26,551 nt of DNA from Bacteroidetes bacterium GWF2_29_10 (GTDB taxonomy: Bacteria; Bacteroidota; Bacteroidia; Bacteroidales; GWE2-29-8): the NCBI GenBank assembly GCA_001768555.1, contig MEOD01000027.1:1-26551 (forward strand), read 5' to 3'. A program made the translations under genes and the position numbers. Positions 1,440 through 26,219 of the stretch are shown one piece after another (the first letter of the stretch is position 1; each line of letters starts with the position of its first letter). The notes beneath the pieces were generated by a model. It saw only the letters and a program-made list of their open reading frames with translations. It ran no database searches and was not told the origin of the DNA.

Positions 1440-1472
1440 GGCTATCTTTTTTTAATCAATACAAAGAAAAAA

Positions 1473-2684: not shown

Positions 2685-2690
2685 AATATT

Positions 2691-3551: not shown

Positions 3552-3567
3552 AATATCAAAAAAAAAA

Positions 3568-4317
3568 ATGAAAGTAATAACTAAAAACGTCAACCTGTTT
3601 TACGGTGATTTTCAAGCTCTCAAGGATATTAATCTTGAGATGGAGATGAATACCGTGACTGCATTGATCGGTCCCTCTGGTTGCGGAAAGTCCACTTATT
3701 TGAGATTGTTTAACAGGATGAATGATCTTATAGACAATGTTAAAATTACAGGCGAAGTATTAATTGATGGGCAAAATATATATGATAAGTCAACTCAAGT
3801 TGATGAGTTAAGAAAAAAAATTGGGATGGTATTTCAAAAACCAAATCCATTTCCAAAGAGTATTTTCGAAAATGTTGCTTTTGGATTAAGAATAAATGGG
3901 ATTAATGATAAAATATACATTGAGGAAACGGTTAAAAACTCATTAATACAAGCCGCTCTTTGGGATGAAGTAAAAGATAAATTGAAAAAATCAGCCTTTG
4001 AGCTTTCAGGAGGACAACAGCAAAGATTATGTATTGCAAGAACGCTCGCAATACAACCTTCCATTGTGTTAATGGATGAACCTGCTTCAGCTTTAGATCC
4101 AATATCAACAGCAAAAATAGAGGATTTGATTTATGATTTGAAGAAAAAATATACAATAATAATAGTAACACATAATATGCAGCAAGCAGCTCGCATTAGT
4201 GACAAAACTGCATTCTTCTATATGGGTGAACTTATTGAATATGACAAAACTTCAAAGATTTTCACAAAACCAGAAAAAGAACAAACACAAAATTATGTTA
4301 CAGGACGTTTTGGTTAA
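3568..4317 (+). CDS. pstB: Phosphate ABC transporter ATP-binding protein PstB
   Basis: 249 aa. Walker [13 protein letters not shown] signature LSGGQQQRL, Walker [13 protein letters not shown] and an H-loop VTHN. The typical PstB length. Confidence 0.92.
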
Positions 4318-4377
4318 AATATATTTTTTACTTTTAGAAATTAATAACAATAAAAACAATTTAATAAAATAAACAAT

Positions 4378-5049
4378 ATGACACATCTTGATGTTGCTCT
4401 ACCAATCATAAAAAAAGATTTGTTAAAAATGATGATGATGGTAAAATCTCAAGTTTCTTTAAGCAAAGATTGCTTAGAAAAATTTGATAAAGAATTGGCT
4501 TATGAAGTATTATCTAATGAAAAAAAAATAGACGCATTTGAGTTAAAATTAAATATGGATTGTGAAAATGTATTAGCTCTATACAATCCTGTTGCTATAG
4601 ACTTGAGGTTTGTTATGGCTTCTTACACCATAACTGCTGATTTGGAAAGAATAGCAGATAAAGCCGCCAGTATCGCACGGTTTGTTACAGATTTAGAAAG
4701 TCCTTTAGCAGAAAATATAAGTAAAAAACTCCAAATAAAAGAAATGTATGAACAAGCATTGATAATACTTGATGATGTTTACGATGTGCTTGAAAATGAA
4801 GATACTGCTTTAGGTAGGGAGGTATTTAAAAAAGATGATTTATTAAATAATATTTATAAAAATTCAACGAAAGCATCTCTTGAATTAATAAAAGAAAATC
4901 CAAATAATTCCGCTCAAATACTTTACGCTTATTCTAGTGTAAAGAAAATTGAACGCATTGGAGATTTAGCCAAAAGCATTATTGAGGAAATAATTTTTTA
5001 TATAGAAGCAAAAGTAATGAAGCATTCAAAATTAGATAAAAATAACTAG
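4378..5049 (+). CDS. phoU: Phosphate transport system regulatory protein PhoU
   Basis: 223 aa and all-helical. Two PhoU repeats with conserved Asp/Glu-x-x-x-Asp patterns (DLERIADKA, KIERIGDLAK). The last gene of the pst operon. Confidence 0.85.
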   Translation: MTHLDVALPIIKKDLLKMMMMVKSQVSLSKDCLEKFDKELAYEVLSNEKKIDAFELKLNMDCENVLALYNPVAIDLRFVMASYTITADLERIADKAASIARFVTDLESPLAENISKKLQIKEMYEQALIILDDVYDVLENEDTALGREVFKKDDLLNNIYKNSTKASLELIKENPNNSAQILYAYSSVKKIERIGDLAKSIIEEIIFYIEAKVMKHSKLDKNN

Positions 5050-5062
5050 AAAAATATTTTAT

Positions 5063-5103
5063 AAAAAAAAAGGCAACTTTTATACAAAGTTGCCTTTTTT
5101 TTT
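5063..5103. terminator. Bidirectional rho-independent terminator shared by phoU (+) and the convergent lipoprotein gene (-)
   Basis: A perfect 10-bp stem aggcaacttt / aaagttgcct (5071-5080 / 5087-5096) with a 6-nt loop. Flanked by an A8 run on the left and a T9 run on the right. It sits between the two convergent stop codons (5049 and 5118). Confidence 0.85.
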
Positions 5104-5117
5104 GCTTTAAAAAATAA

Positions 5118-5372
5118 TTATTTTTTTCCTTTAGCTGTTTTTTCACTTGCGTTAGCAATTGAGTCAGCAGTAGCAGTAGCAACAGCAGCAGCAGCAGCAG
5201 CATTGATAGAATCTTGTATAGCTTGTTGATTTGCAGCTTCCATTTCAGCTTCAACTTTAGCTATAGAATCTTGAATTCTTGCTTCTTCTTTAGCTTTTTC
5301 TTCAGCAGAAGGACCACAAGCAACAAATGAAGCCATACCGGCTACTAATAAAATGGTAAAAAGTTTTTTCAT
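5118..5372 (-). CDS. Small Ala/Glu-rich lipoprotein of unknown function
   Basis: 84 aa. Signal peptide MKKLFTILLVAGMASFVAC with a lipobox Cys. The remainder is predicted helical and Ala/Glu/Lys-rich. Locally GC-rich because of GCN codons. Strong terminator downstream. No family recognised. Confidence 0.6.
   Translation of the reverse strand: MKKLFTILLVAGMASFVACGPSAEEKAKEEARIQDSIAKVEAEMEAANQQAIQDSINAAAAAAVATATADSIANASEKTAKGKK
5165..5202. repeat. Imperfect (CAG/GCW)n trinucleotide repeat encoding the poly-Ala/Thr stretch of the small lipoprotein
   Basis: cagcagtagcagtagcaacag followed by a pure (CAG)6 at 5183-5202. On the minus strand this reads GCT GCT ..., encoding AAAAAAVATATA. Confidence 0.8.
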
Positions 5373-5661
5373 AATTTTAAGTTTTAAATAAATTAATGCT
5401 GCAAAATTACTTTATTTTTTATTTGAAATTATTTTTTTTAAAGTTTTTTTTAAAGTTTTTTTTTTTGTTATTAAAACGATTGAAAAACGTTCTTTTTTTT
5501 GTCTCTTCCTAAATAGGTTTACACAAAAAAATTAGAATTAAGGGAAAAAGTTTTAACCTTAATTTCAGGTTTATCTAAAAATAGAAATATGCGTTATATC
5601 ACTTTTCAATATTTATATCATGCTTATTGTTAATATTTTACTAAAAAAAATAGTTTTTTTT

Positions 5662-5671
5662 GGGGGGGGGG
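5662..5671. repeat. G10 homopolymeric tract in an intergenic region
   Basis: Ten consecutive G (ttttGGGGGGGGGGtgg) in a window that is otherwise ~75% AT. It lies in a 740-bp gene-free region. Confidence 0.9.
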
Positions 5672-6114
5672 TGGCTTTTAGGTAAAGTAATATAATATAA
5701 TGTAATGAAATGGAAATAAGACAGTTTACTCAAATTATGCTATTGATTTATTTATAACGTTTTAACAATTAGTGATTGTGTAAATAAGTATTAATTTTAT
5801 TTGGCTATAAAATATGGCTACCCATAAATACTTACTCATACAAATCTGCTGAATGAAGTACAATAATTTTTATTTTTGATAATGCCTACTTTGCAAATCC
5901 TATTTTATGGTATTATTTATGTTTTCATGCTAATTAATATACAAAATATCATCATTTCAATAATTGGTTTTAATGAAGTATTTGCAGTAGATGGGTGTGG
6001 TTACTTATATGCACATAAAAAAATTGTTTTAGGATTAGAATTACTATTTAAATATCAAATTAATTATAATCATAAAAAAAATAATTAGTAAATTTGTAAA
6101 AAAATTAAATAATC

Positions 6115-8635: not shown

Positions 8636-9451
8636 TTATTGTTTTATTATAAGTTTTTGTTTTAACGCAATTTTTTTTAAATTATTGATTGATTTTTGAC
8701 CAGTTTCTCCCATGTTAACAGTAAAGTCATTTACATACATATTGATATGGTTCTGTATTGTATCAATATCAAGTTCTTGTGCATGTTTTTTTACAAATTC
8801 AATAGAATACGAAGGGTTTGCAATAGCATATCTAACACTATCAGATAAAATTTGATTTATCTTTTGAATAACAGATTGATTAAAAGAAGATTTAATCACA
8901 AAACAACCAAGGGGTAGTGCTAAGCCTGTTTTGTCCTCCCAAAATTGCCCAAAGTCAAAAAAGCATTTTAAGTTTTTCTTTTGAAAGCTAAATCTTGTTT
9001 CGTGTATTATTACACCAGCATTAGCTTTATTAGAAAGTATGCTGTTTTCAATTTGATTAAAAAACATAAATTGTTTTTTATGAATTTCAGGAAACGCAAT
9101 ACTTAACAATAAGTGAGCAGTTGTGTTTTTTCCAGGTATTGCAATGGTACTGTTTGAAATATTGTTTATGTCGAACTCTTGTTTAGCTATTAATAAAGGC
9201 CCGTTAGCTTTTCCTATTGCGCTGCCAGAGTTTAACAATGAATAATTTGTAGTTTGCAAATATCCGTAAACACTCATTTTACTTACATCTATTTCAGATG
9301 CTAGCACCATGCAATTTAAAGTTTCGACGTCCTGCATTACAAATTCAAAATCAAAACAACACCAATCTATAACTTTACTAATAAGAGGGTAAAGTATATA
9401 TGTATCATTTGGACAAGTAGATAGTCCTATTTTAACTTTGATTTTTGACAC
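8636..9451 (-). CDS. mqnD: MqnA/MqnD-family protein, likely 1,4-dihydroxy-6-naphthoate synthase (futalosine menaquinone pathway)
   Basis: 271 aa. N-terminal GLSTCPNDTY motif characteristic of MqnD (the SPCPNDTF block). Periplasmic-binding-protein-like fold length. Confidence 0.55.
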   Translation of the reverse strand: MSKIKVKIGLSTCPNDTYILYPLISKVIDWCCFDFEFVMQDVETLNCMVLASEIDVSKMSVYGYLQTTNYSLLNSGSAIGKANGPLLIAKQEFDINNISNSTIAIPGKNTTAHLLLSIAFPEIHKKQFMFFNQIENSILSNKANAGVIIHETRFSFQKKNLKCFFDFGQFWEDKTGLALPLGCFVIKSSFNQSVIQKINQILSDSVRYAIANPSYSIEFVKKHAQELDIDTIQNHINMYVNDFTVNMGETGQKSINNLKKIALKQKLIIKQ

Positions 9452-12677: not shown

Positions 12678-15515
12678 ATGAAGAAATATCTACAATTTTG
12701 TGTACTAAATGTAATAATTCTGGTGTTTTCTATAAATGTTAATGCTCAATTAATTTATGACTTTAATGCTGACACTAATGCATTAGTACAAAAATTAATG
12801 AGTAATGCTTGTGTTACGTTTAGTAATGCTAAATATAAAGGAGCAAAAGGAGCAAAAGCTATTATAGTAGGTGGCACAAATCCAATGGGAATAAATAGTG
12901 GAATAGTATTATCTACAGGGAATGCTACTGGAGCTGATGCAACTCCTCCATATCCTCAGACTTATAGTATAAACAATAATATGCCAGGAGACGCAGATCT
13001 TGATGTGTTAGCTAGTCCAAATGTTACTTATGATGCATTTGTCCTTGAATTTGATTTTGTACCTTTAGCGGACAGTATATTTTTTAAATATTTATTTGGT
13101 TCGGAGGAATATCATGATGGATTTGATGGTTCTACAGCTTTTGATCTTTTCGCATTCTTTATAAGTGGTCCTGGAATAACAGGATTAAAAAATGTAGCAG
13201 AAATACCAGGAACATCAATTGAGGTAGGGCGAGGAACCATTAACAGAACCGTAAATACTCAATATTTTCATGATAATAATATGCGAACACAAAATGCTTA
13301 TAGAGGTTGGACATCAGTATTTCGTTCGGGAATTAAATTACAGATAGGTCAAACATACCATGCAAAACTTGTTATTGCAGATGTGAGTGATTATTCGATT
13401 GATTCAGGAGTACTTATAGAAACAATAGAATGTCCTCCTCCAGCTCCCTTGCCACCAGTATTTACAGTAAGCACATCATCATCAAGTAATCCAAATACAC
13501 CACAAAATTCATTCTATGAAGGATGCGAAAATATTATAATAAAAGTTAAAGCAAACAAAAAGTTAACAGCAGCAACAACGGTATCAATAGCCTTGAGTGG
13601 CACTGCAACAAATGGAAGTGATTATTCGGCAAATGCAACTTCTGTAACTATTCCTATTGGGAGTGATTCTGCTATTTTTACATTAACAATACTAAATGAT
13701 AATTCAACAGAAGCAGATGAAACAATTAATGTTGATTTTAATCCTTCATCATTAAGTATTCCGCCGATAATAGGATTAATAATAAAGGATGTTACACCTA
13801 TTCAAATAGATTTAACTTCGGATTATACTATATGCCAAGGCAGTACTATAAATATAAGTCCTTCAATCAGTGGAGGGCGTCCAGATTATACATATGTATG
13901 GGAAAATGGGAAAACAACTGAAAGTATTTCAGAAAGTCCCAATATAGAAACAACTTATAAATTAACGGTTACAGATGCTTGTAACAATACTAATACAGCA
14001 CAAACTGTTGTAAATATAGAAATTGGGTCTGCTGAAGCTGGCGACGATCAAAGTATATGCTTTGGGAAATCAGCAACATTAACATCTAATCCTGCAAGCT
14101 CTTACATATGGAGCAATGGAGGCATAACACAATCAATAACAGTAAGTCCAAATCAAACAACAAAATATTATTTATCGGCTACTTCTAATTGTATGGCTGT
14201 TGATAGTGTTATTGTTACTGTTTATCCAATAATGCCAGTAAATATTATTACATCTAAAAATACAATATGTTTAGGAATTGAAGCAAACATGTCATCAAAT
14301 GCAACTGCAAATACATATTTTTGGTCGTCTATACCAAATGATACATCCTTAACTAACCAAAATACAAAAAGCTCGGTTATTGCAAAACCAACAATAAGTA
14401 CTATCTACAGTCTTATGATAACAGATTTTAATGGGTGTTCAAATACGACAAGCATAAAGATAAATATAGATAATGGTCCTAGTGCTTCATTTAGATTTTC
14501 GGCACCAAAAGGATGTGTTTCATCTCCAATAGACATAACTAGTAACACAACTGGTAATTACATATACTTATGGAATTTTGGCTATGGCAGGTTAATTTCG
14601 GGAAACAATGGAGCATCTAATAAGGTTGCATGGGATTCATTAGGGTTTATGAAAGTATCTTTGCAGATAAAGTCAGAGAATGGATGTCTTGGAGATATTA
14701 TTACAGATTCTATTGAAATATTTGATATTCCGATGGTCGATTTTTATGCTATTGATACAGCGGGTTGTCCTCCGTTAGTTGTTTTGTTTAATAATGATTC
14801 ATTAAACCAATATCCAGATGCAGAATATTATTGGGAATTTGGAGATAAAGGAACATCTTCGGACAAAACACCTGTGCATTTATATAAAAATTCAGGCAAA
14901 TTCTCAGTAAGTCTAAAAATAACAAATGCGGGTTGTAGTAATTCGGAAACAAAAAACAATATCATAAATGTTTACCCTGTTCCTAAATCAGAATTTGTTG
15001 TAAAGCCAGAAGAAACATCTATATTTTATCCAGATGTAGTTTTTTATGATGTTACAAAAAATGCGGACTCCACCACTTGGTATTTATTATGGAATGATTC
15101 TACTTTTGGGAACACCCAAAAATTTGAATATGAATTTCCAGATACTGGTGTACAACAATTTTATTTAATAGCAATAAATAGTTTTGGATGTATTGATTCT
15201 GGATTAGGAGAAGTCCTAATTAAAGAAGATTTTACTCTTTACCGTCCAAAATGTTTTACACCCAATGAAGATGGATTAAATGATGTATTTGACATAAAAG
15301 GAATTGGGATAATTGAATTTAAGCTCACAATATATAATAGATGGGGTGAAATTATATATTACTCTGAAGATCTTAATGAAAAATGGAATGGTAAATTAAA
15401 AAATACAGGAAAACTAGTTCAAACAGGTATTTATCCTTATAGAATAGAATTTAAAAATAGTTTGTTAAAACGTAGCACAATATTTGGTCATGTTATGGTT
15501 TTATATAAAAAGTAA
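12678..15515 (+). CDS. T9SS-secreted multidomain surface protein/adhesin (choice-of-anchor L-like N-domain, Calx-beta, 3 Ig-like repeats, 2 PKD, T9SS type-B C-terminal domain)
   Basis: 945 aa with a signal peptide. Calx-beta-like block (aa ~285-355, G..DY...L.F..GE....I.V). Three tandem ~70-aa Cys-containing repeats (aa 377-598). Two PKD signatures (WNFGYG..., YYWEFGDKGTSSDKTPVHLY). C-terminal CFTPNEDGLNDVF...YNRWGE motif of the gliding-motility/T9SS type-B sorting domain. Confidence 0.8.
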   Translation: MKKYLQFCVLNVIILVFSINVNAQLIYDFNADTNALVQKLMSNACVTFSNAKYKGAKGAKAIIVGGTNPMGINSGIVLSTGNATGADATPPYPQTYSINNNMPGDADLDVLASPNVTYDAFVLEFDFVPLADSIFFKYLFGSEEYHDGFDGSTAFDLFAFFISGPGITGLKNVAEIPGTSIEVGRGTINRTVNTQYFHDNNMRTQNAYRGWTSVFRSGIKLQIGQTYHAKLVIADVSDYSIDSGVLIETIECPPPAPLPPVFTVSTSSSSNPNTPQNSFYEGCENIIIKVKANKKLTAATTVSIALSGTATNGSDYSANATSVTIPIGSDSAIFTLTILNDNSTEADETINVDFNPSSLSIPPIIGLIIKDVTPIQIDLTSDYTICQGSTINISPSISGGRPDYTYVWENGKTTESISESPNIETTYKLTVTDACNNTNTAQTVVNIEIGSAEAGDDQSICFGKSATLTSNPASSYIWSNGGITQSITVSPNQTTKYYLSATSNCMAVDSVIVTVYPIMPVNIITSKNTICLGIEANMSSNATANTYFWSSIPNDTSLTNQNTKSSVIAKPTISTIYSLMITDFNGCSNTTSIKINIDNGPSASFRFSAPKGCVSSPIDITSNTTGNYIYLWNFGYGRLISGNNGASNKVAWDSLGFMKVSLQIKSENGCLGDIITDSIEIFDIPMVDFYAIDTAGCPPLVVLFNNDSLNQYPDAEYYWEFGDKGTSSDKTPVHLYKNSGKFSVSLKITNAGCSNSETKNNIINVYPVPKSEFVVKPEETSIFYPDVVFYDVTKNADSTTWYLLWNDSTFGNTQKFEYEFPDTGVQQFYLIAINSFGCIDSGLGEVLIKEDFTLYRPKCFTPNEDGLNDVFDIKGIGIIEFKLTIYNRWGEIIYYSEDLNEKWNGKLKNTGKLVQTGIYPYRIEFKNSLLKRSTIFGHVMVLYKK
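13806..14471 (+). repeat. Three tandem intragenic ~210-bp repeats encoding Ig-like/SprB-like modules inside the adhesin gene
   Basis: The repeat pattern C.G......S....Y.W.NG......V.P..TT.Y.L..TD..C...D.V.V.I recurs three times, at aa 377-448, 449-518 and 519-598. Confidence 0.6.
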
Positions 15516-15519
15516 AGTT

Positions 15520-15990
15520 ATGATAAAAATTAAATTTCACATAGGAATAATAATTTTGTTTATTACAACATTTTCTTTAGCACAAAAGGCTCCAACACCA
15601 GAATTGAACTTGCAAATTGTAAAAATTATAAAGAGTAATATTAATAAAACTATCGACAGAGGAGAATGTTGGGATTTGGCAAATTTAGTTCTCTCTGAAA
15701 CTAATGCAAAATGGGACCATCAATTTGGATTTGGAAGAGAAATAAAGTACTCCATAGATAGTATTTATGCTGGCGATATTATTCAGTTTACTAATGCAAA
15801 GATACAAATGGCAGATGGAGTTGTTTGGCGTTTTGGGCAACATACTGCTATAATTTATGAAATAGATAAAAATAAAAAAATAAAAATAGCACACCAAAAC
15901 GTGAATAATGTTCGCAAAGTTATAATAAGTGATTTTGAGCCAGAAGGATTAATTGAGGGCAAACTTAAAATTTATAGACCTATAAAATAA
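15520..15990 (+). CDS. Small secreted protein, possibly a papain-like (CHAP/NlpC-P60 superfamily) hydrolase
   Basis: 157 aa from the ATG at 15520. The upstream ATG at 15484 would overlap the adhesin stop. Signal peptide MIKIKFHIGIIILFITTFSLAQ. A conserved-looking Cys (GECWDL) and a downstream His in a hydrophobic strand (QHTAIIYEI), consistent with a Cys-His papain-like dyad. The assignment is weak. Confidence 0.4.
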   Translation: MIKIKFHIGIIILFITTFSLAQKAPTPELNLQIVKIIKSNINKTIDRGECWDLANLVLSETNAKWDHQFGFGREIKYSIDSIYAGDIIQFTNAKIQMADGVVWRFGQHTAIIYEIDKNKKIKIAHQNVNNVRKVIISDFEPEGLIEGKLKIYRPIK

Positions 15991-16113: not shown

Positions 16114-17811
16114 TTAAAGTGTTATATCTTCATTTGCTTTTTTTTTTGCATCTAATATTTGCTTCCTATCAATAGTTCTAGGTATTTCTTTATTAAGAGC
16201 TATATTATAATTTTTAATTGCATTAATTTTGTCATTTTTTAATCTATAATACTCTCCAATAACATAATAAGTATAATAATAATTAGGATTTAAGTTTCGA
16301 TAATAATTTATCTCCTTATCAGATATATTCATTACATTATCGTTTGACATGTAATACTTAAGCATTTTTGTTTTTATTTTATATTCTTTATATTTTTTAA
16401 ATTCTGGTGATTTCAAAAAAGCATCTTCCTTTATCGTTAAGGATGAATCGTATAAATCATCTAAAACATTTACATGTTTGCCAAATATATCATTAAGATT
16501 GTATGATATGTAAGCACCTAATTGATATGGATTTGATGATACCCAAATTTGCAATTTTTCTGGTTTAAAAATTACAGAGTGATGTGCAATAAGTTGGTTT
16601 ATTGATTTTTCATTTCCCATACCAATATCTTTATTATTTTTTCCTTTTTGATCTCTTAATATTAAGGCAAATGACTCTACATTGTGTTTTTTGCATTTAT
16701 TTAACAATTCTGCTGTTCTTTCCCAACGATATAAAGAAGCGCCTTCTTTTAAACTTTGAATGTTTATCTCTGTGTTTTTTAATTTTTCACCCTGATAATG
16801 ATTAGTTAGTATTAATTGATTAGAACCTGTTTCAAATAATCCTATATTATCTGTTGATTTTTCTATAACAACCGTTTTTTTATCTACAGAAGAACTAATT
16901 AAAAAAGATTCAGAAACAAAAATTTGCATTTTATTAGCTATAGCATAAGCTTCATCTATATTCGAAGCATATTGCAGTATCATTCTTGCTAGAATTGAAA
17001 CAGGCGTTCCTGTAGAAGTTGGGATTTTTGATTTTGCAGCATTTAAAGTCACGACAAGTCCTTTATCATTCATTCCAGATATAACTCCAATCATGCCTCC
17101 CCATGTAATGGTACAAAATTTATGTCCACTATCAGGCTCATAAAACGCTATTATTTTATTTTCCGCGAAGTCATCACCTGAAGAGAAATCCATATTTTTG
17201 CCAATTAATATTGTACTGTCTTCAGATTTATCTCCACTAACTTCAAAAGCCGTACACCCCACTAAATTCATATTTTGCAAAGTATGCCCAATATCATGAG
17301 CAGCATGATAATTAAGCATTCTATGATAAGCAGGACCTATGTAATTAAATTTATCAGAGGCATGTAATGAAACACCATATATTTCTTTTTGAAATTCCAG
17401 AGGTATATGTTCATCTATATTTCTATTAAACCACAATATAAAATACTTTAAAACATTTAAATACATTTTGGAAGGAACCATTTCGTTTATATTCTCTAAA
17501 AATATAGCTTCTTGTTGTTCTATTAATTCTGAGGATAGTATTCCATTTTTCACACCTAATTCGAAAGCACTACCTTTAAGGTACATTTCCCATAAACCAT
17601 ATTTATTTTTTTTCAGCCAACTATCTTTACATATGTATACATTGGGGGAAATCTCTTTTCTATAAATATTTTTAGTTATTTTATAATCAACTAAAGGAGG
17701 GTGAACTTTTATAGATAATACAAATACAGAAACAATAATACCTAAGATTACCAATATTATAATCAGTAGTTTAAATAATTTGCTTTTGTAAATAGGCTTA
17801 TTGTTTTTCAT
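16114..17811 (-). CDS. Membrane-anchored C45-family peptidase / Ntn-hydrolase acyltransferase-like protein with a C-terminal TPR-like region
   Basis: 565 aa. N-terminal TM helix. A Gly-Cys autoprocessing-like site (LVG|CTAFEV; Cys186 at nt 17254-17256), as in acyl-CoA:6-APA acyltransferase/C45. C-terminal Tyr/Asn-rich helical repeats (YYTYYVIGEYYRLKNDKINAIKNYNIAL) resembling TPR. It is the last gene of the leftward operon. Confidence 0.55.
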   Translation of the reverse strand: MKNNKPIYKSKLFKLLIIILVILGIIVSVFVLSIKVHPPLVDYKITKNIYRKEISPNVYICKDSWLKKNKYGLWEMYLKGSAFELGVKNGILSSELIEQQEAIFLENINEMVPSKMYLNVLKYFILWFNRNIDEHIPLEFQKEIYGVSLHASDKFNYIGPAYHRMLNYHAAHDIGHTLQNMNLVGCTAFEVSGDKSEDSTILIGKNMDFSSGDDFAENKIIAFYEPDSGHKFCTITWGGMIGVISGMNDKGLVVTLNAAKSKIPTSTGTPVSILARMILQYASNIDEAYAIANKMQIFVSESFLISSSVDKKTVVIEKSTDNIGLFETGSNQLILTNHYQGEKLKNTEINIQSLKEGASLYRWERTAELLNKCKKHNVESFALILRDQKGKNNKDIGMGNEKSINQLIAHHSVIFKPEKLQIWVSSNPYQLGAYISYNLNDIFGKHVNVLDDLYDSSLTIKEDAFLKSPEFKKYKEYKIKTKMLKYYMSNDNVMNISDKEINYYRNLNPNYYYTYYVIGEYYRLKNDKINAIKNYNIALNKEIPRTIDRKQILDAKKKANEDITL

Positions 17812-17836: not shown

Positions 17837-19345
17837 TTATTTTATTTCTCTAATATCTTTAATCAGCTTATTAATATCAATGAATGCAGAGCATGATATT
17901 ATAGCACTTATTGTTACGCCTAATATCCCGTGTAAGCCAACATTCTGTCCTGTAAGATATAAATTTGGAATTTTTGTATATGTTGAAATAAAAGTACTAA
18001 TAGGATCATTGCAATCTTTTATTATTCCATACATAGAGCCTTCAGGTACTCCAGTGTAATCTCTATATGTTAATGGTGTTGAGCTATAAAATGTTTCAAT
18101 AGAATCTTCAATGTTGTTAAATTTTTTGCTAACTAGCTTAATTAATTTATTGCTTCGATCTTTTTTAAATACATTGTAATCCTCATCTCTTTTACCTGTT
18201 ATAGAATCTTTCCATTTTTTAACATCTTCAAATTTCATAGAAGAAATAACAGTAATGCTTTTTGCAAACTCTAAATTGTTCTCATCAGGACAAGTGTATA
18301 GCATATATCCCGTAGGCCAATCTGATTGTTTATAATTATTTGCGGTCCATACATCTTTAGATTTTGAATAATAAATATTTGAGTTTATATGTTTAATTTT
18401 TTTCTTTTTTAAAATAATATATAAAACAAAAGACCCTATTGAGTTTTCTAAATTACTAATTCTTTGTATATAAACTTTCCTTAATTTACCTTCATCCTTT
18501 ATAAGCTGATTTGTTTGTGCAGGATGAATGTTTGAAATAAATGAATTACCAAATACTATTGACTTATCTTTAGTTTCTAGAGATAAAACTCTATTATTAT
18601 TAAAATTTATTTGCAAAACTTCCTTATTTGTGAAAATAACTCCATTGTTTTCCTCAATTACAGATTTAAGAGCATATACTAAATTATCACTGCCATTTTT
18701 AAATTTAAAAGCACTTTGAATAAAAAAAAGATTAATTAAAGCATGAATATGAAAAGGCGTTTTATCAGGAATGCCAGCATATAAACCATTTGTTGCAACA
18801 AGCAATGTTCTTAATTCTGTATTTTCTGTTATACTGTTTATTACTTTACTAACACTTTCTGTCAACATGTCTATTTTCATAATATGTTCATGTTGATTGG
18901 GTAGATTTTTTAAAGCTAAAATGTTTGTGGCATCCCATGCTTGCTGGAGTTTATTGATGTAATTTAATATATTATCTTTTTCTTCAGGAAAGTAAGCAAA
19001 CAATTTCTCTCTGAAATTATTTATTCCCATAGAATAACAATACTCTTTTTCTTCAATAAATATTTTTTCGAAACAATCTTCATCCAACCTAACTAGTTCT
19101 AATCTATCAAGTATTCCAATATATTTGAATATTTTATTTAGTATTTGCCCATTGTCCAAACTCCCTACATAATGCATACCAGTGTTAAACTTACAACCCT
19201 TTCTTTTAAATGTCTGCAAATTGCCCCCTAATTGAGAATGTTTTTCTAAAATGCATACAGAATAACCATTTTTGCTAAGAATAGCACCACATAATAAACC
19301 TCCTAAACCACTACCAATTATCACTACATCATATTTTTCAGACAT
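17837..19345 (-). CDS. FAD-dependent oxidoreductase, phytoene-desaturase (CrtI)-like family, copy B
   Basis: 502 aa. N-terminal dinucleotide-binding motif VVIIGSGLGGLLCGAIL...LEK...GG. Conserved C-terminal block LYLTGQNVGLHGILG. Paralogous (~45-50% identity by eye) to the adjacent upstream gene. Confidence 0.75.
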   Translation of the reverse strand: MSEKYDVVIIGSGLGGLLCGAILSKNGYSVCILEKHSQLGGNLQTFKRKGCKFNTGMHYVGSLDNGQILNKIFKYIGILDRLELVRLDEDCFEKIFIEEKEYCYSMGINNFREKLFAYFPEEKDNILNYINKLQQAWDATNILALKNLPNQHEHIMKIDMLTESVSKVINSITENTELRTLLVATNGLYAGIPDKTPFHIHALINLFFIQSAFKFKNGSDNLVYALKSVIEENNGVIFTNKEVLQINFNNNRVLSLETKDKSIVFGNSFISNIHPAQTNQLIKDEGKLRKVYIQRISNLENSIGSFVLYIILKKKKIKHINSNIYYSKSKDVWTANNYKQSDWPTGYMLYTCPDENNLEFAKSITVISSMKFEDVKKWKDSITGKRDEDYNVFKKDRSNKLIKLVSKKFNNIEDSIETFYSSTPLTYRDYTGVPEGSMYGIIKDCNDPISTFISTYTKIPNLYLTGQNVGLHGILGVTISAIISCSAFIDINKLIKDIREIK

Positions 19346-19346
19346 A

Positions 19347-20840
19347 TTAAGCTTTTTTTATTTTGTTAAACAAATAATCCCTACCTATTATTTCAGAACA
19401 AGTAAGAGCAGCTCCTATTGATACGCCCAATATACCATGCATATTCAAATTTTGGCCAGTAAAATATAAATTTTCAATGCGTGATCGAGGTGTAATTATA
19501 GTTGATAGCAAATTATCTTGTTTTTTTAATATTCCATAAGCAGAACCATTTGGAGTCGCTGTATAATCTCTATAAGTAAGAGGTGTTGATGTGTAATAGC
19601 ATTCTATTTTTTCTCTTAATCTTGGAAATTTCACTTCTATAAAATCTATAAGTTTTTCAGCTTTCCTTTGCTTAAACTCTAAATATTCATCACTTCTATT
19701 TTCGGTATAAGTGTCTTCCCATTTTTTCACCTCATTATATTTCATATACGTTATAGCAATAATTCCATTTGCCCATATATCTGAATTTGAATTAGACGGG
19801 GTGTATAACATGTAGTGTTCCGGCCAATATGCTTCATTATAGTTTGTAGTCCATGTATTTACTTTTGAAAAATGGTGGTGATTATAATTAAGATAAGGAA
19901 ATTGTTTTTTTTTCAAAACTATGTATAAAGAAAACATTCCTATAGTATTTTCAAGAGAACTTATTCTTGACTTAAATGCCATTTTGTTTATATTTCTATC
20001 AACTATATCTAGTGTTACTTTAGGATGTATATTTGAAATTATTTTTTTTGCATAAATTCTCTCCCCGTCTTCAGTATCAACATAATCAACTTTTTTATCA
20101 CCACCAAAAGACACGACCTTTTTAGAAAGTCTAATAATCCCTCCATTTTTATATATTTCATCTGCAATTCTTGCTGCTAATTGAGATCCTCCATCAATAA
20201 TGCGCCATGCGCTTTTTATAAATGTATAATTTATTAAAGAATGAATATACAATGGAGTTTCAGCTTGAACTCCAGCATAAAGCGAATTCATACCTCCAAG
20301 TATATTATTAAGTTTATTATTTGAAGTTATTGAAGATAAGTAATTATATGCATTAGTTTGTAACTTATTTAAACCAATTGCGGATAAATCCATAGAATCA
20401 TTTAATGTATAAAAAGGAAACGAATTACATACATGTTTCATATCCTTTATATATATTTTAAGATTTTCTTTTTCTTTAGGAAAATATTCTGCTAACGATT
20501 CTATAAAATTATTATAACCTTGAGCAAATGGGTATTCATTGTTATCTTCCGAAAAACTAATACGTTCAAAACCTTCTATATCCAAGCGCTTCAACTTAAG
20601 CTTATCTATTATGTTAAAATACTTAAAATATCTATTTAAAACCTCCCCTTCCCCTAAACCTTCTGTATAATTTAACCCAGTATTAAATATTGTTTTATTT
20701 TTTGCAAAAGACTGAATACACCCTCCAATCATTTTATTTTTTTCTAACAAGCAAACTTTCAACCCCTCCCTACTCAATATATTTCCACACAATAGTCCAC
20801 CAAGACCTGCACCAACTATAACAATGTCATATTTTTCCAT
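19347..20840 (-). CDS. FAD-dependent oxidoreductase, phytoene-desaturase (CrtI)-like family, copy A
   Basis: Start chosen at M22 (MEKYDIVIVGAGLGG; 20840). The ORF is open to 20903 but that would overlap the upstream gene by 77 nt. GxGxxG motif. C-terminal LYFTGQNLNMHGILG block. Tandem paralogue of 17837-19345. Confidence 0.75.
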   Translation of the reverse strand: MEKYDIVIVGAGLGGLLCGNILSREGLKVCLLEKNKMIGGCIQSFAKNKTIFNTGLNYTEGLGEGEVLNRYFKYFNIIDKLKLKRLDIEGFERISFSEDNNEYPFAQGYNNFIESLAEYFPKEKENLKIYIKDMKHVCNSFPFYTLNDSMDLSAIGLNKLQTNAYNYLSSITSNNKLNNILGGMNSLYAGVQAETPLYIHSLINYTFIKSAWRIIDGGSQLAARIADEIYKNGGIIRLSKKVVSFGGDKKVDYVDTEDGERIYAKKIISNIHPKVTLDIVDRNINKMAFKSRISSLENTIGMFSLYIVLKKKQFPYLNYNHHHFSKVNTWTTNYNEAYWPEHYMLYTPSNSNSDIWANGIIAITYMKYNEVKKWEDTYTENRSDEYLEFKQRKAEKLIDFIEVKFPRLREKIECYYTSTPLTYRDYTATPNGSAYGILKKQDNLLSTIITPRSRIENLYFTGQNLNMHGILGVSIGAALTCSEIIGRDYLFNKIKKA

Positions 20841-23800
20841 AATTTTTCTTTCTAAGTACATATGTAATATTCGACGTGTAATACGAATTGTCAAAAATTT
20901 CACAAATTAATTCATTTGCTTTTGCAAAATCTTGTATCTTTTTACCAGAAATAAACGTCAGTTTACATTTAGTTTTATTAAATTTAAATATTTTTGTTGA
21001 TTGTATTTCTGTTAATTTTGTTCTTTTTGTTCTTTTTTTCAAATCTGCATCAGCATCTCTAATAATAATCATTCCATCGGAAGAAACATTTCTAACACAT
21101 TCAGACAAAACATTTATTTGTACATTTTCTGGCATATAATGCAATACATCATTTAAAATAAACACATCTGCATTAGGTAGCTTACTTTCACTTATATCTA
21201 GGACTTTAAAATTAAGGCAATCGTCTTTAATCGGAATATTGTTTGCAATACTAATTTTCTCTTCATCATAGTCTATACCTGTTACTATTCTGTTTTTAGA
21301 AACCATTCTAAGCATACAAGAAAGAAATCCATAACCACAACCAATATCCACAATATTAGAATTCATAGGGATTATATTATTATAAAATTTATATTGTTTT
21401 TCCATTCTTATTTTCACTCTGAGATACCATTCTAAAACAGGACCTTTATAAATATATTGATGAATCAACTGATGATAATAGAAATCTGGGGTTTCTTTTT
21501 CTAATCGTAGTTTTGCATATTCGCTTCTATAAAATTTCAACACTTTTTTTGTTTGTTCTCGATAAGTAACACCGCATGATGTTTGCATTGGAGTTTCAAC
21601 CTCAAATTTATCAAACACTTTGATAGTTATATGTCCTGATTTTAGAAAAAAATCGGTTTTAGACAAACAGTTATAAGCTCCATGTATCATTATAGGCTGG
21701 ATAGCTATACCTAATTCATGTGCGATATTAAATGCTCCTTGTTGAAATCTGTTAATTTCGCCATCAAAAGTTCTTTTTCCTTCTGGGAAAATTAATATAG
21801 AATATCCATCATTAACTTTTCTTTTTATTTTTTCAATGTCATTATTTAAACCTTTGTATGCTGGATAAAATTCGGCATATCTTATTATAAAGCCATAAAA
21901 AGGATTATTCCAAACCCATTGATTTGTAAATACTATAATTTTAGGATTTAACATTAATAGTAAAACAAGGTCTAAATGAGATTGATGATTAGAAATAATT
22001 ATAGAAGGTTTTGAAAAATCTAATTTTTGCATATCTATATAATCTCGTTTAATTGTAATATTAACATAAACAATAAATTTAGAGAATATATAGATAATAT
22101 AGCTCATAAAATATTTTTTTGACTTTTTTCTTATTGGTGTACAGAAAAGTATAGGCAATAAAGTTGTCATCGTTATAGAACCTAATAAAAATATAAAAAA
22201 TGAACCTATAGATATTATAGAATTAACTAAATTGATAGGTTGAATTCTTTTGTTTTTTCCATTATTTATGATAAAATTAAAAAATAAAGGCAATATCGTA
22301 TATGAAAAAACTAAAGCAGAACTAATACCAATAATTGAGACTATTGCAATTGATTTAAGTGCAGGATGTTCAGCTAATATCAAAACTCCAAATGCTCCTA
22401 TAGTAGTTATAGCAGAAAGAAAGACTGATAATTTATATGAAACAAGGCTAACATTTCCGTATTTATAATTATCTATCAAACCACTCATTATAAATATACT
22501 ATAATCAAGACCTAGTCCAAATATAAAACTTAAAACAATTACATTAAATATATTAAATTCAATATTAAAAAAGCCCATTAATCCCAAAGTCCACAACCAA
22601 CATAATGCTACGGGTATAAAAGTTATTATTGCTATTTCAATTCTTCCAAAAAAGATTAACAATAAACAAAAAACGACTAACATTGATAATAATGATAATT
22701 TATTGAAATTTTCTTTTAGTATATCAAATAATTTATTTACAAAAATTTGTTTATCAAAAACAATAATACCCTCTATATTATTTAGTTTTTTTAGCAATTC
22801 GTTTTTATGCTTTAAATCAACCTTTAGTATAGATGCAACATAGTAAGTATTATTTGTAGAATTAATATAATTACTAAGAAAATTATTTTTAATTAATTCA
22901 AATTCATCAATTGAAACAGTTGAAAAATTTTTATCAAGCAATTTATAAAAATCATTAAAAGCTGATTCCTTAAAATGAAAAAGTTTTCCCTTTTCTGATA
23001 TAGTTTTTTTTAATGTTTTTTTGTTATTTTTATCCCAAAACTTATTCCATTTATCAATCTTCTGTTGCTGCATATAAGCACTCATTATTAAATCTGATGC
23101 AGAAGATACAGCTGTTATTGTCGCATCTGAAATGAGCTTTTGAAATAAAGTCTTTTGTTGTTCACTTTTTCTTATTGCAGAATCGAGTATTGTATCCTGA
23201 GCTATTACATATACAGCGCTATTAGCTACGGAACTTATGCTTTTTAAATTATTTTCTGCTGTAGAAAGTTTTTTTGTAATGTAATTAAGAGTTCCAATAT
23301 CACTATTAAATTTCAAATTTTGTGAACTAAAAATAAAAAAAACAGATAAAATCATTATTGATATTATTAAAATTTTATTTTTATCATAATTTAATCCTAT
23401 AATTTTTTCCAAATATTTTGTTTTAAAATTAGGAGACTTTATATTAGCAACTTCTTTTAGAAAAAAAGGCATTATTACTAAAACAGATAATGAAGTAAAT
23501 GTAATTGCAAAAGCAGCAAACATACTTAACTGTTTAATAGCTTCTGAATGTATAACAAATAAGCACATGAAAGTAGCAGATGTAGTCATACTACTAAGAA
23601 GAACTGGAAGAGCGATCTTCTTTATTGTATTTTTTACCGAGTTACTTTCTCTATAATGAGTAAAAGCATGTAATGGGTAATCAACAGAGATACCTATTAG
23701 TATAGCTCCTATTCCTAAAGATATTATAGAAATAGCACCATTAACAATAGACAACATTGCTAATGATAAAAGAGCTCCTATAGCAACTGGTAAAAATAAT

Positions 23801-24687
23801 AATAAAATTACCTTAAAACGTCTAAAAAACAACCAAAATATTATAGACAAAAATATTATGGATATTGAAACTGTAATTATTATATCCTGCTTTATCTGGG
23901 TTGAGTTTGCTACAGCAACTGCAGTCCCCCCATAATATTCAACATTAATATTAGAAGATGTTTTTATAACATTAATCAGTGCATTATCTAATAATGTAAT
24001 TAACTTACTATTCATCTTTGTATTATTTGATGGATAATATGGTTCGATAAATATTAGCAGATGCTTTTGGTCGTTAGTAAATATACACGAATTGTAAATA
24101 GTAAAGTTTTTGTCAATCTGAAAACTTTGAAGTTTTTTTAGAGCTAAAGGAGTTATACTTAAAGGATCATTGAATATATATTTTTTTGTTGCAATTCCAG
24201 TTGGAGAAATTAATACTTTTAAATTGTTTTCAAGTTTATGTTCTATATATTTATCATTAAGAAGAGATTGAATATGCTCATAATCTTTATCATCTAAATA
24301 TAAAGGTAAATTATTGTATATAAAATCATAAACATCAAGAAATGTCTTTTCATTTATCTTAAACTTAATTTCTTTTATGTATGTAGAATCTTTTGATAAT
24401 TGAGCGACTAAATTATCTGCTACCTCTATTAATTTATCTGGATTATTAGAAATACTATATTTAAATGATATGTTAAATATTATCTGACTGGCAAGTTTTG
24501 AATTGTTAAATGCTAAATTTAATTCATCTATTCTACTATCTTGAGGAACTATTGAGTTAATATTTTCTTCAAAATCTAATCTAAATAGGAAATACACCGA
24601 AACTATTAACAAACATGCAAGCATAATTAAAGAAGCAAGTTTGTGTTTATATAGAAAATTGTTTATACTTATAAAAAAGTTACCCAT
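20827..24687 (-). CDS. Tri-domain fusion protein: MMPL/RND-like exporter + PlsC-type lysophospholipid acyltransferase + class I SAM-dependent methyltransferase
   Basis: 1286 aa. Residues 1-~830 form two periplasmic domains, each followed by a TM bundle (GISVDYPLHAF and GLGLDYSIFI GxxxD-type motifs of MMPL/RND exporters). Residues ~870-1060 are an acyltransferase with the HX4D motif ISNHQSHLD (nt 21969-21995) and FPEGKR block. Residues ~1090-1286 are a methyltransferase with VDIGCGYGFLS (nt ~21320-21350) and an acidic motif II. Confidence 0.7.
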   Translation of the reverse strand: MGNFFISINNFLYKHKLASLIMLACLLIVSVYFLFRLDFEENINSIVPQDSRIDELNLAFNNSKLASQIIFNISFKYSISNNPDKLIEVADNLVAQLSKDSTYIKEIKFKINEKTFLDVYDFIYNNLPLYLDDKDYEHIQSLLNDKYIEHKLENNLKVLISPTGIATKKYIFNDPLSITPLALKKLQSFQIDKNFTIYNSCIFTNDQKHLLIFIEPYYPSNNTKMNSKLITLLDNALINVIKTSSNINVEYYGGTAVAVANSTQIKQDIIITVSISIIFLSIIFWLFFRRFKVILLLFLPVAIGALLSLAMLSIVNGAISIISLGIGAILIGISVDYPLHAFTHYRESNSVKNTIKKIALPVLLSSMTTSATFMCLFVIHSEAIKQLSMFAAFAITFTSLSVLVIMPFFLKEVANIKSPNFKTKYLEKIIGLNYDKNKILIISIMILSVFFIFSSQNLKFNSDIGTLNYITKKLSTAENNLKSISSVANSAVYVIAQDTILDSAIRKSEQQKTLFQKLISDATITAVSSASDLIMSAYMQQQKIDKWNKFWDKNNKKTLKKTISEKGKLFHFKESAFNDFYKLLDKNFSTVSIDEFELIKNNFLSNYINSTNNTYYVASILKVDLKHKNELLKKLNNIEGIIVFDKQIFVNKLFDILKENFNKLSLLSMLVVFCLLLIFFGRIEIAIITFIPVALCWLWTLGLMGFFNIEFNIFNVIVLSFIFGLGLDYSIFIMSGLIDNYKYGNVSLVSYKLSVFLSAITTIGAFGVLILAEHPALKSIAIVSIIGISSALVFSYTILPLFFNFIINNGKNKRIQPINLVNSIISIGSFFIFLLGSITMTTLLPILFCTPIRKKSKKYFMSYIIYIFSKFIVYVNITIKRDYIDMQKLDFSKPSIIISNHQSHLDLVLLLMLNPKIIVFTNQWVWNNPFYGFIIRYAEFYPAYKGLNNDIEKIKRKVNDGYSILIFPEGKRTFDGEINRFQQGAFNIAHELGIAIQPIMIHGAYNCLSKTDFFLKSGHITIKVFDKFEVETPMQTSCGVTYREQTKKVLKFYRSEYAKLRLEKETPDFYYHQLIHQYIYKGPVLEWYLRVKIRMEKQYKFYNNIIPMNSNIVDIGCGYGFLSCMLRMVSKNRIVTGIDYDEEKISIANNIPIKDDCLNFKVLDISESKLPNADVFILNDVLHYMPENVQINVLSECVRNVSSDGMIIIRDADADLKKRTKRTKLTEIQSTKIFKFNKTKCKLTFISGKKIQDFAKANELICEIFDNSYYTSNITYVLRKKNYGKI

Positions 24688-24688
24688 C

Positions 24689-25870
24689 TTATTTTTTTCT
24701 AAATAATTTTAATAATAAAAATGAAAATAAACCAAAAAAAACAGACAACATAAACGCAAAAACAATACTCCCTATAAGATATTGTTTTAAATTAGCCTTA
24801 ACTCCTTCAATGCTTAATTCTACATCTACATTCCAACTCCCATTTTCCAGCACATAACTTCCCGTAATATAACTTAAATAAAGAATAATAGGTAACAATG
24901 GAGGGAAACTAATATTTGCAGCAAGAAAGAAAATAGCCTTATTTAATTTGAAAAAATGTGCTATTATAAAACCAATTATAAGCTGAAATCCCCATATAGG
25001 AACAATACCCATAAATACACCAAATGCTATAGAGGAAGCGATTATATGATTTGAAGTATTAACATCTAATATATCTTCTTTAATTATTTGTTTGAAAGTT
25101 TTTTTTCTGTATACATTAAGTATTTTTTTTGGGCGGTAATAAATTAGAGCCATTGTTACCAAAACAATATTTAATAAGCTTATTCTTAAAAAATCTTTAA
25201 AAGGACGAAAATGTGATATTCTATTTTCTTTTTCAGGGTAATAAACGTCTATAGGTACGCACAAAACATCAATATTTGCCCAAGAAGCTCTAACAATTAT
25301 TTCTAACTCAAATTCATATTTGCCCGAAAAAAACTTTATTGATTTCATTTCTTTTAATGGATATAACCTATATCCTGATTGTGTATCGGGTAATTCAACA
25401 CCAGTTTCTATATTAAACCAAAAATTAGAAAACTTATTTGCAAAATTGCTTTTAGATGAAATATTAGAGTTTTTAAGCGAGCGGGAACCTATGATAATAG
25501 AATTAGAATTACGATCAAGGGCTTCCAAAAAAACGGGTAAATCTTTAGCAAAATGCTGTCCATCAGAATCAATTGTAATAGCATAATTAAAGCCTGCATC
25601 TAATACATTTTTAAAACATGTACGTAAAGCGTATCCTTTTCCTTTATTTATTGGATATGAAATAATATTAATTGTCGAAAACGGTTTAATTATATCTAAA
25701 GTATTATCAGTGCTTCCATCATTAATTATAAAGATATCATCACAATATGGGATTAAATCTTCAATAACTTTTTTTATAAATGTAGCATTATTGTATGTTG
25801 GCATTACAATGCAACACTTTTTTTGCCTAAATATATTTTTACATTGATTTGCGTTATTATTTGAATTCAC
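24689..25870 (-). CDS. GT2-family glycosyltransferase with a C-terminal polytopic membrane domain
   Basis: 393 aa. N-terminal GT-A motifs (CIVMPTYNN, INDGSTDNT, DSDGQH). The C-terminal ~150 aa contain four hydrophobic helices. Overlaps its neighbours by 1-14 nt (operon). Confidence 0.75.
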   Translation of the reverse strand: MNSNNNANQCKNIFRQKKCCIVMPTYNNATFIKKVIEDLIPYCDDIFIINDGSTDNTLDIIKPFSTINIISYPINKGKGYALRTCFKNVLDAGFNYAITIDSDGQHFAKDLPVFLEALDRNSNSIIIGSRSLKNSNISSKSNFANKFSNFWFNIETGVELPDTQSGYRLYPLKEMKSIKFFSGKYEFELEIIVRASWANIDVLCVPIDVYYPEKENRISHFRPFKDFLRISLLNIVLVTMALIYYRPKKILNVYRKKTFKQIIKEDILDVNTSNHIIASSIAFGVFMGIVPIWGFQLIIGFIIAHFFKLNKAIFFLAANISFPPLLPIILYLSYITGSYVLENGSWNVDVELSIEGVKANLKQYLIGSIVFAFMLSVFFGLFSFLLLKLFRKK

Positions 25871-26219
25871 CTTTAAACTTTAGATATTTTATTTCGTCTG
25901 AATATAATAAGCCTGTAACTGATATTCTCCCCGTATCTGTATATTTATAATTAATAATGCTTTCTATTTGAGCTTTTTCAAGCGGATTATGCATTGCTAA
26001 AAATTTAACTTCACTTAATAGCTCTATCATCAAATTTATTTTTAATTCTTTTTTTAATATTTCTTTTATAATTAATATTTGGCAAACACCTGGTGTAATT
26101 GGGATATTAGGAAAATGTCCTTTATATATTAAGTTGTCTTTATTTAGTATAATACTTGCACGTATTTCACTATCTGTTTTGCTTATGATATTATATTTGT
26201 AAAGATCATTAATTAGCAT
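25857..26219 (-). CDS. Hotdog-fold 3-hydroxyacyl-ACP dehydratase-like protein (FabZ/ApeI-ApeP-like)
   Basis: 120 aa. The block GHFPNIPITPGVCQILIIKE matches the FabZ/FabA active-site motif GHFPxxPxxPGV (His in the catalytic position). Small hotdog size. Confidence 0.65.
   Translation of the reverse strand: MLINDLYKYNIISKTDSEIRASIILNKDNLIYKGHFPNIPITPGVCQILIIKEILKKELKINLMIELLSEVKFLAMHNPLEKAQIESIINYKYTDTGRISVTGLLYSDEIKYLKFKGEFK

Follow-up and report, generated by a model that had tools for sequence, protein, structure and literature searches.

A FlxW-type C45 proenzyme with a predicted periplasmic active site closes a flexirubin/aryl-polyene-type operon in an uncultured Bacteroidales bacterium

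Which enzyme joins the polyene of a flexirubin-type pigment to its final partner, and on which side of the cytoplasmic membrane would it act? Flexirubins are chemotaxonomic markers of the Bacteroidota and aryl-polyene (APE) clusters are reported among the most widespread bacterial biosynthetic clusters; to our knowledge, no experiment has assigned the reaction by which the polyene is joined to its final partner. The question arises anew in a 26,551-nt stretch of DNA from Bacteroidetes bacterium GWF2_29_10 (GenBank assembly GCA_001768555.1, contig MEOD01000027.1, positions 1 to 26,551 of the forward strand), hereafter called the window, where an operon of this type ends with a gene for a protein of 565 amino acids (aa). 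By sequence and predicted structure, the gene product is a proenzyme of the C45 family of cysteine N-terminal nucleophile (Cys-Ntn) hydrolases. It is very probably inserted with the N-terminus inside and the C-terminus outside, whereby the catalytic domain and a TPR-like tail would face the periplasm.

At the GC content of the window (27.6%) an open frame of 565 codons is far beyond chance. A sequence database search returned more than 6400 homologues of ~560 aa, mostly from Bacteroidota, many of which are already labelled 'C45 family peptidase' or 'C45 family autoproteolytic acyltransferase/hydrolase'. The NCBIfam model NF040521 (C45_proenzyme) matches residues 79-421 with 210.6 bits (cut-off 85) over model positions 1-312 of 313, and Pfam AAT (PF03417) reaches 84.5 bits (cut-off 23.2, E = 1.1e-23). 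An initial annotation of this stretch had proposed a C45-type Cys-Ntn hydrolase, and both models bear this out. Of the families it had named for searches with hidden Markov models (HMMs), C45 was recovered, NAAA was reached by a family profile (see below) and C59 was not matched. The choloylglycine hydrolase model CBAH (PF02275), representing C59, gives no match to the window protein at E <= 1 and weak matches in 5 of 63 orthologues (best E = 3.5e-5). C59-type folds, moreover, resemble the structural model of the protein more loosely in Foldseek (target-normalised template modelling score, TM-score, ~0.5). Membership in C59 was rejected, as the window protein is unmatched by the family model.

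The structure was predicted with AlphaFold2 from an alignment of 63 orthologues. The model has a mean predicted local distance difference test score (pLDDT) of 90 and a predicted template modelling score (pTM) of 0.90. Two segments fall below a pLDDT of 50, one of which is the linker just ahead of Cys186 (residues 180-182). The top Foldseek match in the PDB is isopenicillin-N acyltransferase (IAT) of Penicillium chrysogenum, the type member of C45 (2x1c/2x1d, further entry 2x1e), with E = 2.6e-14 and a target-normalised TM-score of 0.76. It is followed by acid ceramidase, NAAA and bile-salt hydrolases, and the matches listed (50 of 90 at E <= 0.001) are Ntn hydrolases without exception. The Ntn fold that the initial annotation had suggested looking for is therefore present in the model.

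Cys186, initially named as the presumptive nucleophile, is placed accordingly in all comparisons. In a pairwise alignment with 2x1d, C186, N206, D208 and F209 pair with C103, N119, D121 and F122 of IAT, and the Gly-Cys junction of the window protein pairs with G102-C103. In the family profile, the Cys column pairs with residue 1 of the mature NAAA beta chain (NAAA match E = 5.9e-6). Cys186 is invariant in 63/63 close orthologues as well as in 15/15 orthologues of a wider set comprising Bacteroidales and Flavobacteriales. N206 and D208 are equally invariant in the family, while Thr187 is invariant in the 63 close orthologues and is Ser in two Flavobacteriales orthologues of the wider set. Other invariant positions of the beta core in the wider alignment are GDDFAENK (212-219), N257, H338, GNEK (399-402) and H410-H411. 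The proenzyme very probably cleaves itself before Cys186, such that the alpha chain would retain the anchor and the beta chain would open with the nucleophile. The low pLDDT of residues 180-182 hints at this indirectly.

The site itself lies within LVGCTAF (residues 183-189, containing Gly185-Cys186), and a Gly-Cys site had been called typical of self-processing enzymes. This holds for the Cys and not for the Gly. The residue preceding the Cys is Ala in 46/63 and Gly in only 9/63 close orthologues; it is Gly in 9/9 Flavobacteriales and Ala in the two Bacteroidales loci of the wider alignment. Gly-Cys was rejected as a family signature, since Ala-Cys is commoner.

A second conserved element is found in the alpha chain. 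The motif HAAHDIGH (residues 169-176; 17284-17307, minus strand) is located 10-17 residues ahead of the cleavage site. Its residues A171, H172, D173, G175 and H176 are invariant from Bacteroidales through Flavobacteriales, and HxxHD is retained in distant fused C45 forms. IAT has no counterpart to the motif in the alignment. Together with the invariant H338 and H410-H411, HAAHDIGH could possibly form a metal site or line the pocket.

Outside the catalytic domain, the protein contains one hydrophobic segment only (approximately residues 13-35, Kyte-Doolittle up to 3.4). It is preceded by five Lys and modelled as a helix from residue 11 to 34, in agreement with the membrane anchor noted before. 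The C-terminus had been described as Tyr/Asn-rich and helical, which is likewise confirmed: residues 431-565 contain 17 Tyr and 16 Asn in 135 residues (35 and 49 in the 565 residues of the whole protein), and the model shows five helices in the tail (469-489, 498-507, 512-524, 528-540 and 546-564). Its likeness to TPR domains is seen at the level of the family. The profile of the 63 orthologues matches consensus TPR proteins (E = 1.7e-6 and 1.3e-5, profile positions 504-554), and Pfam TPR_2, TPR_8 and TPR_1 are found in 15/63, 12/63 and 12/63 orthologues, respectively. The tail of the window protein alone yields no Pfam TPR match at E <= 1, so the initial term 'TPR-like' stands for the family profile and falls below threshold for the single sequence.

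Identity to IAT is only ~19%. IAT is soluble, 357 aa long and peroxisomal and uses acyl-CoA (coenzyme A), whereas the window protein is anchored in the membrane and differs further in a longer alpha chain with the invariant AHDxGH, the TPR tail and a predicted extracytoplasmic site. Acid ceramidase and NAAA share the fold with the window protein and the N-terminal Cys after self-cleavage (predicted in the window protein). Both are lysosomal and membrane-associated and act on lipid acyl chains with no nucleotide or CoA cofactor. They differ in forming a separate family of the same superfamily (13-14% identity) and in being amide hydrolases, and we know of no TPR tail in either of them.

The gene context is that of a pigment lipid operon. 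The C45 gene follows the oxidoreductase gene upstream after a gap of 25 bp, and a convergent gene begins 123 bp downstream. Hence the C45 gene ends the operon here, as the initial annotation had stated. No terminator was detected when the sequence downstream of the gene was scanned. The first half of the operon, read from sister contigs, encodes a ketosynthase (KS), a protein resembling KS and chain length factor (KS/CLF-like), a polysaccharide deacetylase, a LolA-like protein and an unknown protein of 218 aa. The second half encodes an ApeI-like dehydratase, a GT2/DUF2062 glycosyltransferase, a fusion of MMPL exporter, PlsC-type acyltransferase and methyltransferase, two FAD oxidoreductases and the C45 protein. 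The fusion protein (FlxU-type) unites the roles of ApeM, ApeD and ApeB in a single polypeptide. As listed, its gene shares 77 bp with the gene that follows when the latter is read from its most upstream start; on the source contig, a metagenome contig of 30.8 kb, the following gene is called 14 codons shorter. The two FlxV-type oxidoreductases share 40.8% identity with each other.

Synteny was evaluated by tblastn of the operon proteins against 17 genome loci encoding a C45 relative. The LolA/ApeI/GT2/MMPL block is located directly upstream of the C45 gene in 12/17 loci. It was not found in L005 and L007, where no neighbour matched, and three loci (L001, L006, L011) are too short and show only an adjacent MMPL and/or FAD oxidoreductase gene. 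A FlxV-type FAD oxidoreductase gene is directly upstream in 12/17 loci as well, as a single copy in 10 and as a double copy in L002 and L003, to which alone the duplication is common. The syntenic loci include Myroides, Flavobacterium, Arenibacter, Bizionia, Aquimarina and Jejudonia, cultured organisms being among them. The genetic linkage of the C45 gene to the part of APE/flexirubin clusters that serves lipid anchoring and export is seen in at least three lineages. A probe with Escherichia coli FabH found no FabH-like (darB) gene within 10 kb of any C45 locus; this result is uninformative because darB lies ~25 genes away in Flavobacterium johnsoniae.

Some loci deviate in detail. Four marine Flavobacteriaceae loci (L008, L014, L015, L017) are without FlxV. 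An open reading frame (ORF) of ~294 aa occupies its place in L014, L015 and L017, confirmed as Cupin_8/JmjC-like for L014 only, and L008 has no ORF there. In a Breznakibacter metagenome-assembled genome (MAG; L004, 11805-15487) the C45 gene does not end the operon. Behind it come genes for a secreted PAF-acetylhydrolase-like alpha/beta hydrolase, a FlxY-type AMP-ligase and a further PlsC-like acyltransferase.

The side of the membrane was predicted from the charge bias of the 15 residues on each side of the hydrophobic helix in the 63 orthologues. Mean net charges of +4.0 before and -0.43 after the helix were obtained, and Lys/Arg are more numerous on the N side in 54/63 orthologues. By the positive-inside rule, this bias places the N-terminus in and the catalytic domain out. 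Moreover, the anchor is replaced by a lipoprotein signal, L-x-S-C-G, in 9/9 Flavobacteriales orthologues (L008-L010, L012-L017), which would likewise export the domain. These orthologues have no acidic residues after the lipobox Cys. In the lipoprotein export signal of Bacteroidota, acidic residues after the Cys are linked to surface exposure. This suggests that the Flavobacteriales C45 lipoproteins are not surface-exposed.

A further line of evidence comes from domain fusions in other phyla. Among 1.84 billion cluster representatives, 348 relatives were found at E <= 1e-30. In four independent fusions among them (P0263, P0241, P0208 and P0249) a single extra transmembrane helix separates C45 from a partner domain of the pathway, with an Arg-rich stretch before the helix and a conserved (E/P)PP motif after it. 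MMPL/RND transporters have an established topology in which the C-terminus lies in the cytoplasm. In the FlxU protein of the window, the acyltransferase and S-adenosylmethionine (SAM) methyltransferase domains come after the MMPL part, and such domains need cytoplasmic substrates. A cytoplasmic MMPL C-terminus followed by one added helix places C45 in the periplasm in the fusions, as far as can be predicted.

The fusions stand in clusters of the same type. P0263 was found on five contigs from two assemblies (64.7% GC) within an APE-type cluster. Its neighbours encode LolA, a weak DUF3261 match, a GT2::lipid-A-acyltransferase fusion, an acyl carrier protein (ACP), a ketoreductase (KR) and a KS as well as an amine-oxidase-like oxidoreductase and ApeP/ApeI dehydratases. 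Several Planctomycetota MAGs encode P0208 (4 cluster members), again in an APE-type cluster, where its gene comes after those for an oxidoreductase, an MMPL protein, an ApeI-like dehydratase and an ACP. P0249 comes after a KS/CLF gene. An origin as assembly artefacts was considered and rejected for P0263 and P0208, given the five contigs in two assemblies and the several MAGs. The fusions are located on high-GC contigs (58-74% GC), including Planctomycetota MAGs, and the association of C45 with APE clusters extends beyond Bacteroidota.

Genes of this kind have been listed before. Schoner et al. 2014 (PMC3992019) tabulated the gene as flxW (Cpin_1875) and Fjoh_1076, annotated 'peptidase C45 ...' and 'Ntn_hydrolase' (Tables S4/S5), within the orders flxN to flxW of Chitinophaga pinensis and Fjoh_1088 to Fjoh_1076 of F. 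johnsoniae. They proposed FlxW, without a test, as a ligase-like enzyme joining aryl-polyene to dialkylresorcinol. In Kumagai et al. 2018 (PMC5932025) this orthologous group is among 16 APE synthesis/transport genes co-enriched in rhodopsin-lacking marine Flavobacteriia, a biased distribution that darA and darB do not show. A taxonomy paper of 2026 tabulates 'W (76): Ntn hydrolase'. The initial view that such a role is undescribed for flexirubin/APE loci is thus not tenable.

The gene order in the window and its sister contigs equals flxN..flxW, and the window FlxU corresponds to flxU in Table S4 of PMC3992019. On these grounds, together with the shared annotation, the window gene is the orthologue of FlxW (Cpin_1875) and Fjoh_1076, with which it was compared by gene order and annotation. 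As a proxy for these two proteins, identities to syntenic orthologues from Flavobacterium, Myroides and Arenibacter are 41-46% (43% for Flavobacterium macacae). The gene is a member of an already listed, uncharacterised family, and its annotation is ordinary, the name having been given by NCBI; what is added here are the compartment argument and the exporter fusions. The window differs from the flx cluster in possessing two FlxV paralogues and in having no flxX or flxY after the C45 gene. It further differs in the transmembrane anchor, where Flavobacteriales orthologues carry the lipoprotein signal, and in its host, an uncultured metagenome bacterium of 27.6% GC.

Comparison with the apeA-R clusters of E. 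coli CFT073 and Xenorhabdus doucetiae is instructive with respect to the product. Homologues are shared for ApeM (MMPL), ApeL (LolA), ApeJ (GT2/DUF2062), ApeD (PlsC acyltransferase), ApeB (methyltransferase) and ApeI (dehydratase). A C45 enzyme, a FlxV-type oxidoreductase and a deacetylase are all missing from the published gene lists of the apeA-R clusters, and the E. coli APE paper, which describes 18 genes, does not mention an Ntn hydrolase. Aryl-polyene lipids (APELs), which are glycolipids, are the products of the E. coli and Xenorhabdus clusters, and the aryl-polyene stays on the glycolipid in the end product. The Xenorhabdus product has its aryl-polyene in ester linkage to GalNAc-phosphate-diacylglycerol and is made by homologues of the GT2, PlsC and MMPL proteins of the window.

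What would an extracytoplasmic C45 enzyme do in such a pathway? We tentatively favour an acyl-enzyme reaction on the pigment lipid after its export, either hydrolysis or transacylation, and rate it somewhat below an even chance. The MMPL exporter would deliver a lipid-linked acyl donor, ester or amide, to the periplasmic enzyme, an APEL-like glycolipid of the Xenorhabdus kind being a candidate donor. The enzyme would form an acyl-S-Cys186 thioester. From there the acyl chain would pass either to water or to a final acceptor, which in flexirubin producers would be dialkylresorcinol. Docking on the exporter or on the LolA-like carrier is the most plausible role of the TPR tail. Acyl-CoA and acyl-ACP are unavailable outside the cytoplasm. 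Hence the donor is probably an ester- or amide-linked lipid from the exporter, and a reaction fed by acyl-CoA or ACP is unlikely. The analogy to CoA thioesters, which the initial annotation had drawn from the fungal enzyme, fits poorly with a catalytic domain predicted to be extracytoplasmic.

The narrower proposal of a CoA-independent envelope transacylase, seated at the periplasmic exit of the exporter and specifically transferring aryl-polyene to dialkylresorcinol, is more doubtful. It has the merit of accounting for a discrepancy. Flexirubin contains no sugar, phosphate or glycerol, and flexirubin clusters nevertheless retain the full glycolipid-anchoring machinery. Transacylation from a carrier lipid to the acceptor via acyl-S-Cys186 would reconcile the sugar-free pigment, the retained machinery and the proposal of 2014.

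An enzyme on the same side of the membrane could also be purely hydrolytic, that is a lipid amidase or esterase similar to PvdQ, acid ceramidase or NAAA, which trims an exported precursor, e.g. an aminosugar N-acyl group or the carrier, and acts together with the polysaccharide deacetylase of the cluster. Two neighbours in the fold search, acid ceramidase and NAAA, cleave lipid amides, and the family profile matches the NAAA beta chain. The deacetylase gene is conserved in the operon and fused to C45 in P0249, and Xenorhabdus APELs contain a GalNAc amide. However, flexirubin has no known amide (PMC3992019), and the best structural and HMM matches point to the transferase IAT rather than to amidases. 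In addition, the Breznakibacter deacetylase follows two transmembrane helices with an N-in start, which suggests a cytoplasmic position and therefore a compartment different from that predicted for C45. We consider this explanation rather unlikely.

Distinctly unlikely in our view is an IAT-like acyltransferase facing the cytoplasm, which would move aryl-polyene from CoA or ACP to dialkylresorcinol, as in the 2014 proposal, or to an amino lipid, as the initial annotation had it. The closest solved relative is indeed an acyl-CoA:isopenicillin-N acyltransferase, and FlxW was proposed to be ligase-like (PMC3992019). A further relative, P0153, speaks for this orientation as well. There, a GT2 domain adjoins C45-TPR directly, without a transmembrane helix in between, and positive charges lie on the C side of the anchor, a topology that would put C45 in the cytoplasm. 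P0153 is, however, a 'partial' protein on a single 2.5-kb contig and likely an assembly artefact. A cytoplasmic site is further at odds with the N-in bias in 54/63 orthologues, the lipoprotein signals in 9/9 Flavobacteriales orthologues and the four fusions with a cytoplasmic partner ahead of the transmembrane helix. Finally, a neighbour outside the pigment pathway, e.g. a peptidase acting on envelope proteins with its TPR tail suggesting protein-protein contacts, is highly improbable in view of the synteny conserved in Bacteroidales and Flavobacteriales, the co-distribution with APE genes in marine Flavobacteriia (PMC5932025), the fusions to MMPL, PlsC and deacetylase within APE-type clusters of other phyla and the closest characterised fold relatives, which act on small-molecule or lipid acyl groups and not on proteins.

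Besides P0153, some points weigh against a periplasmic acyl-enzyme reaction on the exported pigment lipid. That the domain faces the periplasm is predicted from charge bias, signal type and fusions. The identity of donor and acceptor and the choice between transfer and hydrolysis are what we infer with moderate confidence. Our searches of the literature for flexirubin or aryl polyene combined with C45, isopenicillin or Ntn found no experimental study of the subfamily. Moreover, the organism of the window, represented by contigs of about 30-34 kb, may not produce a dialkylresorcinol.

If true, an envelope transacylase would account for a flexirubin ester bond formed without ATP and would explain why flexirubin clusters keep a glycolipid-anchoring machinery of which the final pigment shows nothing. 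A bacterial C45 enzyme would also have a biosynthetic role for the first time. The C45 gene is the standing candidate for the polyene-joining step, and a predicted extracytoplasmic active site, next to or fused to the exporter, shifts the candidate substrates from CoA/ACP thioesters to lipid-linked donors.

Table 1. Coordinates of the C45 gene, its predicted parts and the neighbouring operon genes in the window, and of C45 fusion proteins at other loci.
Feature	Position	Strand	Basis
FlxW-type C45 Cys-Ntn proenzyme, complete ORF, 565 aa + stop	16114..17811	minus	ORF listing, NF040521, PF03417, AlphaFold2
N-terminal signal-anchor helix, residues 13-35 (predicted)	17707..17775	minus	hydropathy scan; modelled helix 11-34
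Alpha chain / pro-region, residues 36-185 (predicted)	17257..17706	minus	invariant AHDxGH motif; low-confidence linker 180-182
Cys186 codon, predicted autoproteolysis site Gly185/Cys186 and beta-chain N-terminal nucleophile	17254..17256	minus	invariance, IAT/NAAA alignment
Beta-chain Ntn core, residues 186 to ~445 (predicted)	16477..17256	minus	Foldseek, residue alignment, invariant columns
TPR-like Tyr/Asn/Lys-rich helical tail, residues 464-565	16117..16422	minus	modelled helices; family-profile TPR matches
Two tandem FlxV-type FAD oxidoreductases, 502 aa + 518 aa, phytoene-desaturase / amine-oxidase-like	17837-19345, 19347-20903	minus	Pfam NAD_binding_8 + Amino_oxidase
FlxU-type trifunctional protein, 1286 aa, MMPL exporter + PlsC-type acyltransferase + SAM methyltransferase	20827..24687	minus	Pfam MMPL, Acyltransferase, Methyltransf_31
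FlxT-type GT2/DUF2062 glycosyltransferase	24689-25870	minus	Pfam
FlxS-type ApeI-like dehydratase	25857-26219	minus	Pfam; ApeI-like call on source contig
Fusion P0263, 1308 aa: MMPL, one transmembrane helix, C45, TPR	L021/L022 10001-13927		
Fusion P0241, 935 aa: C-terminal half of MMPL, one transmembrane helix, C45, TPR			
Fusion P0208, 846 aa: PlsC acyltransferase, one transmembrane helix, C45, TPR	L023 4845-7385		
Fusion P0249, 1012 aa: polysaccharide deacetylase, further sequence, one transmembrane helix, C45	L024 5181-8219		

The remainder of the window contains several further genes. Convergent with the pigment operon is a pair on the plus strand. It consists of a gene for a predicted type IX secretion cargo of 945 aa with CHU_C sorting domain, PKD and Calx-beta (12678-15515) and an overlapping gene for a 168-aa protein with an AIM3/BBC1-type cysteine-proteinase fold and a weak CHAP match (15484-15990). 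A complete phosphate-uptake operon is located at 585-5049 (plus strand) and encodes a PstS-like binding protein, two permeases, an ATPase and PhoU. On the minus strand, a VitK2_biosynth gene of the futalosine route to menaquinone (8636-9451) adjoins genes for an NAD-dependent epimerase and a 510-aa SPFH/Band 7 protein. Scans of the window for tRNAs and Rfam families gave no match, including the region 5050-6114, ~1 kb without an ORF of at least 100 aa. This region holds a small ORF on the plus strand (5118-5372) for an Ala-rich predicted lipoprotein of 84 aa, the signal of which ends in FVACG.

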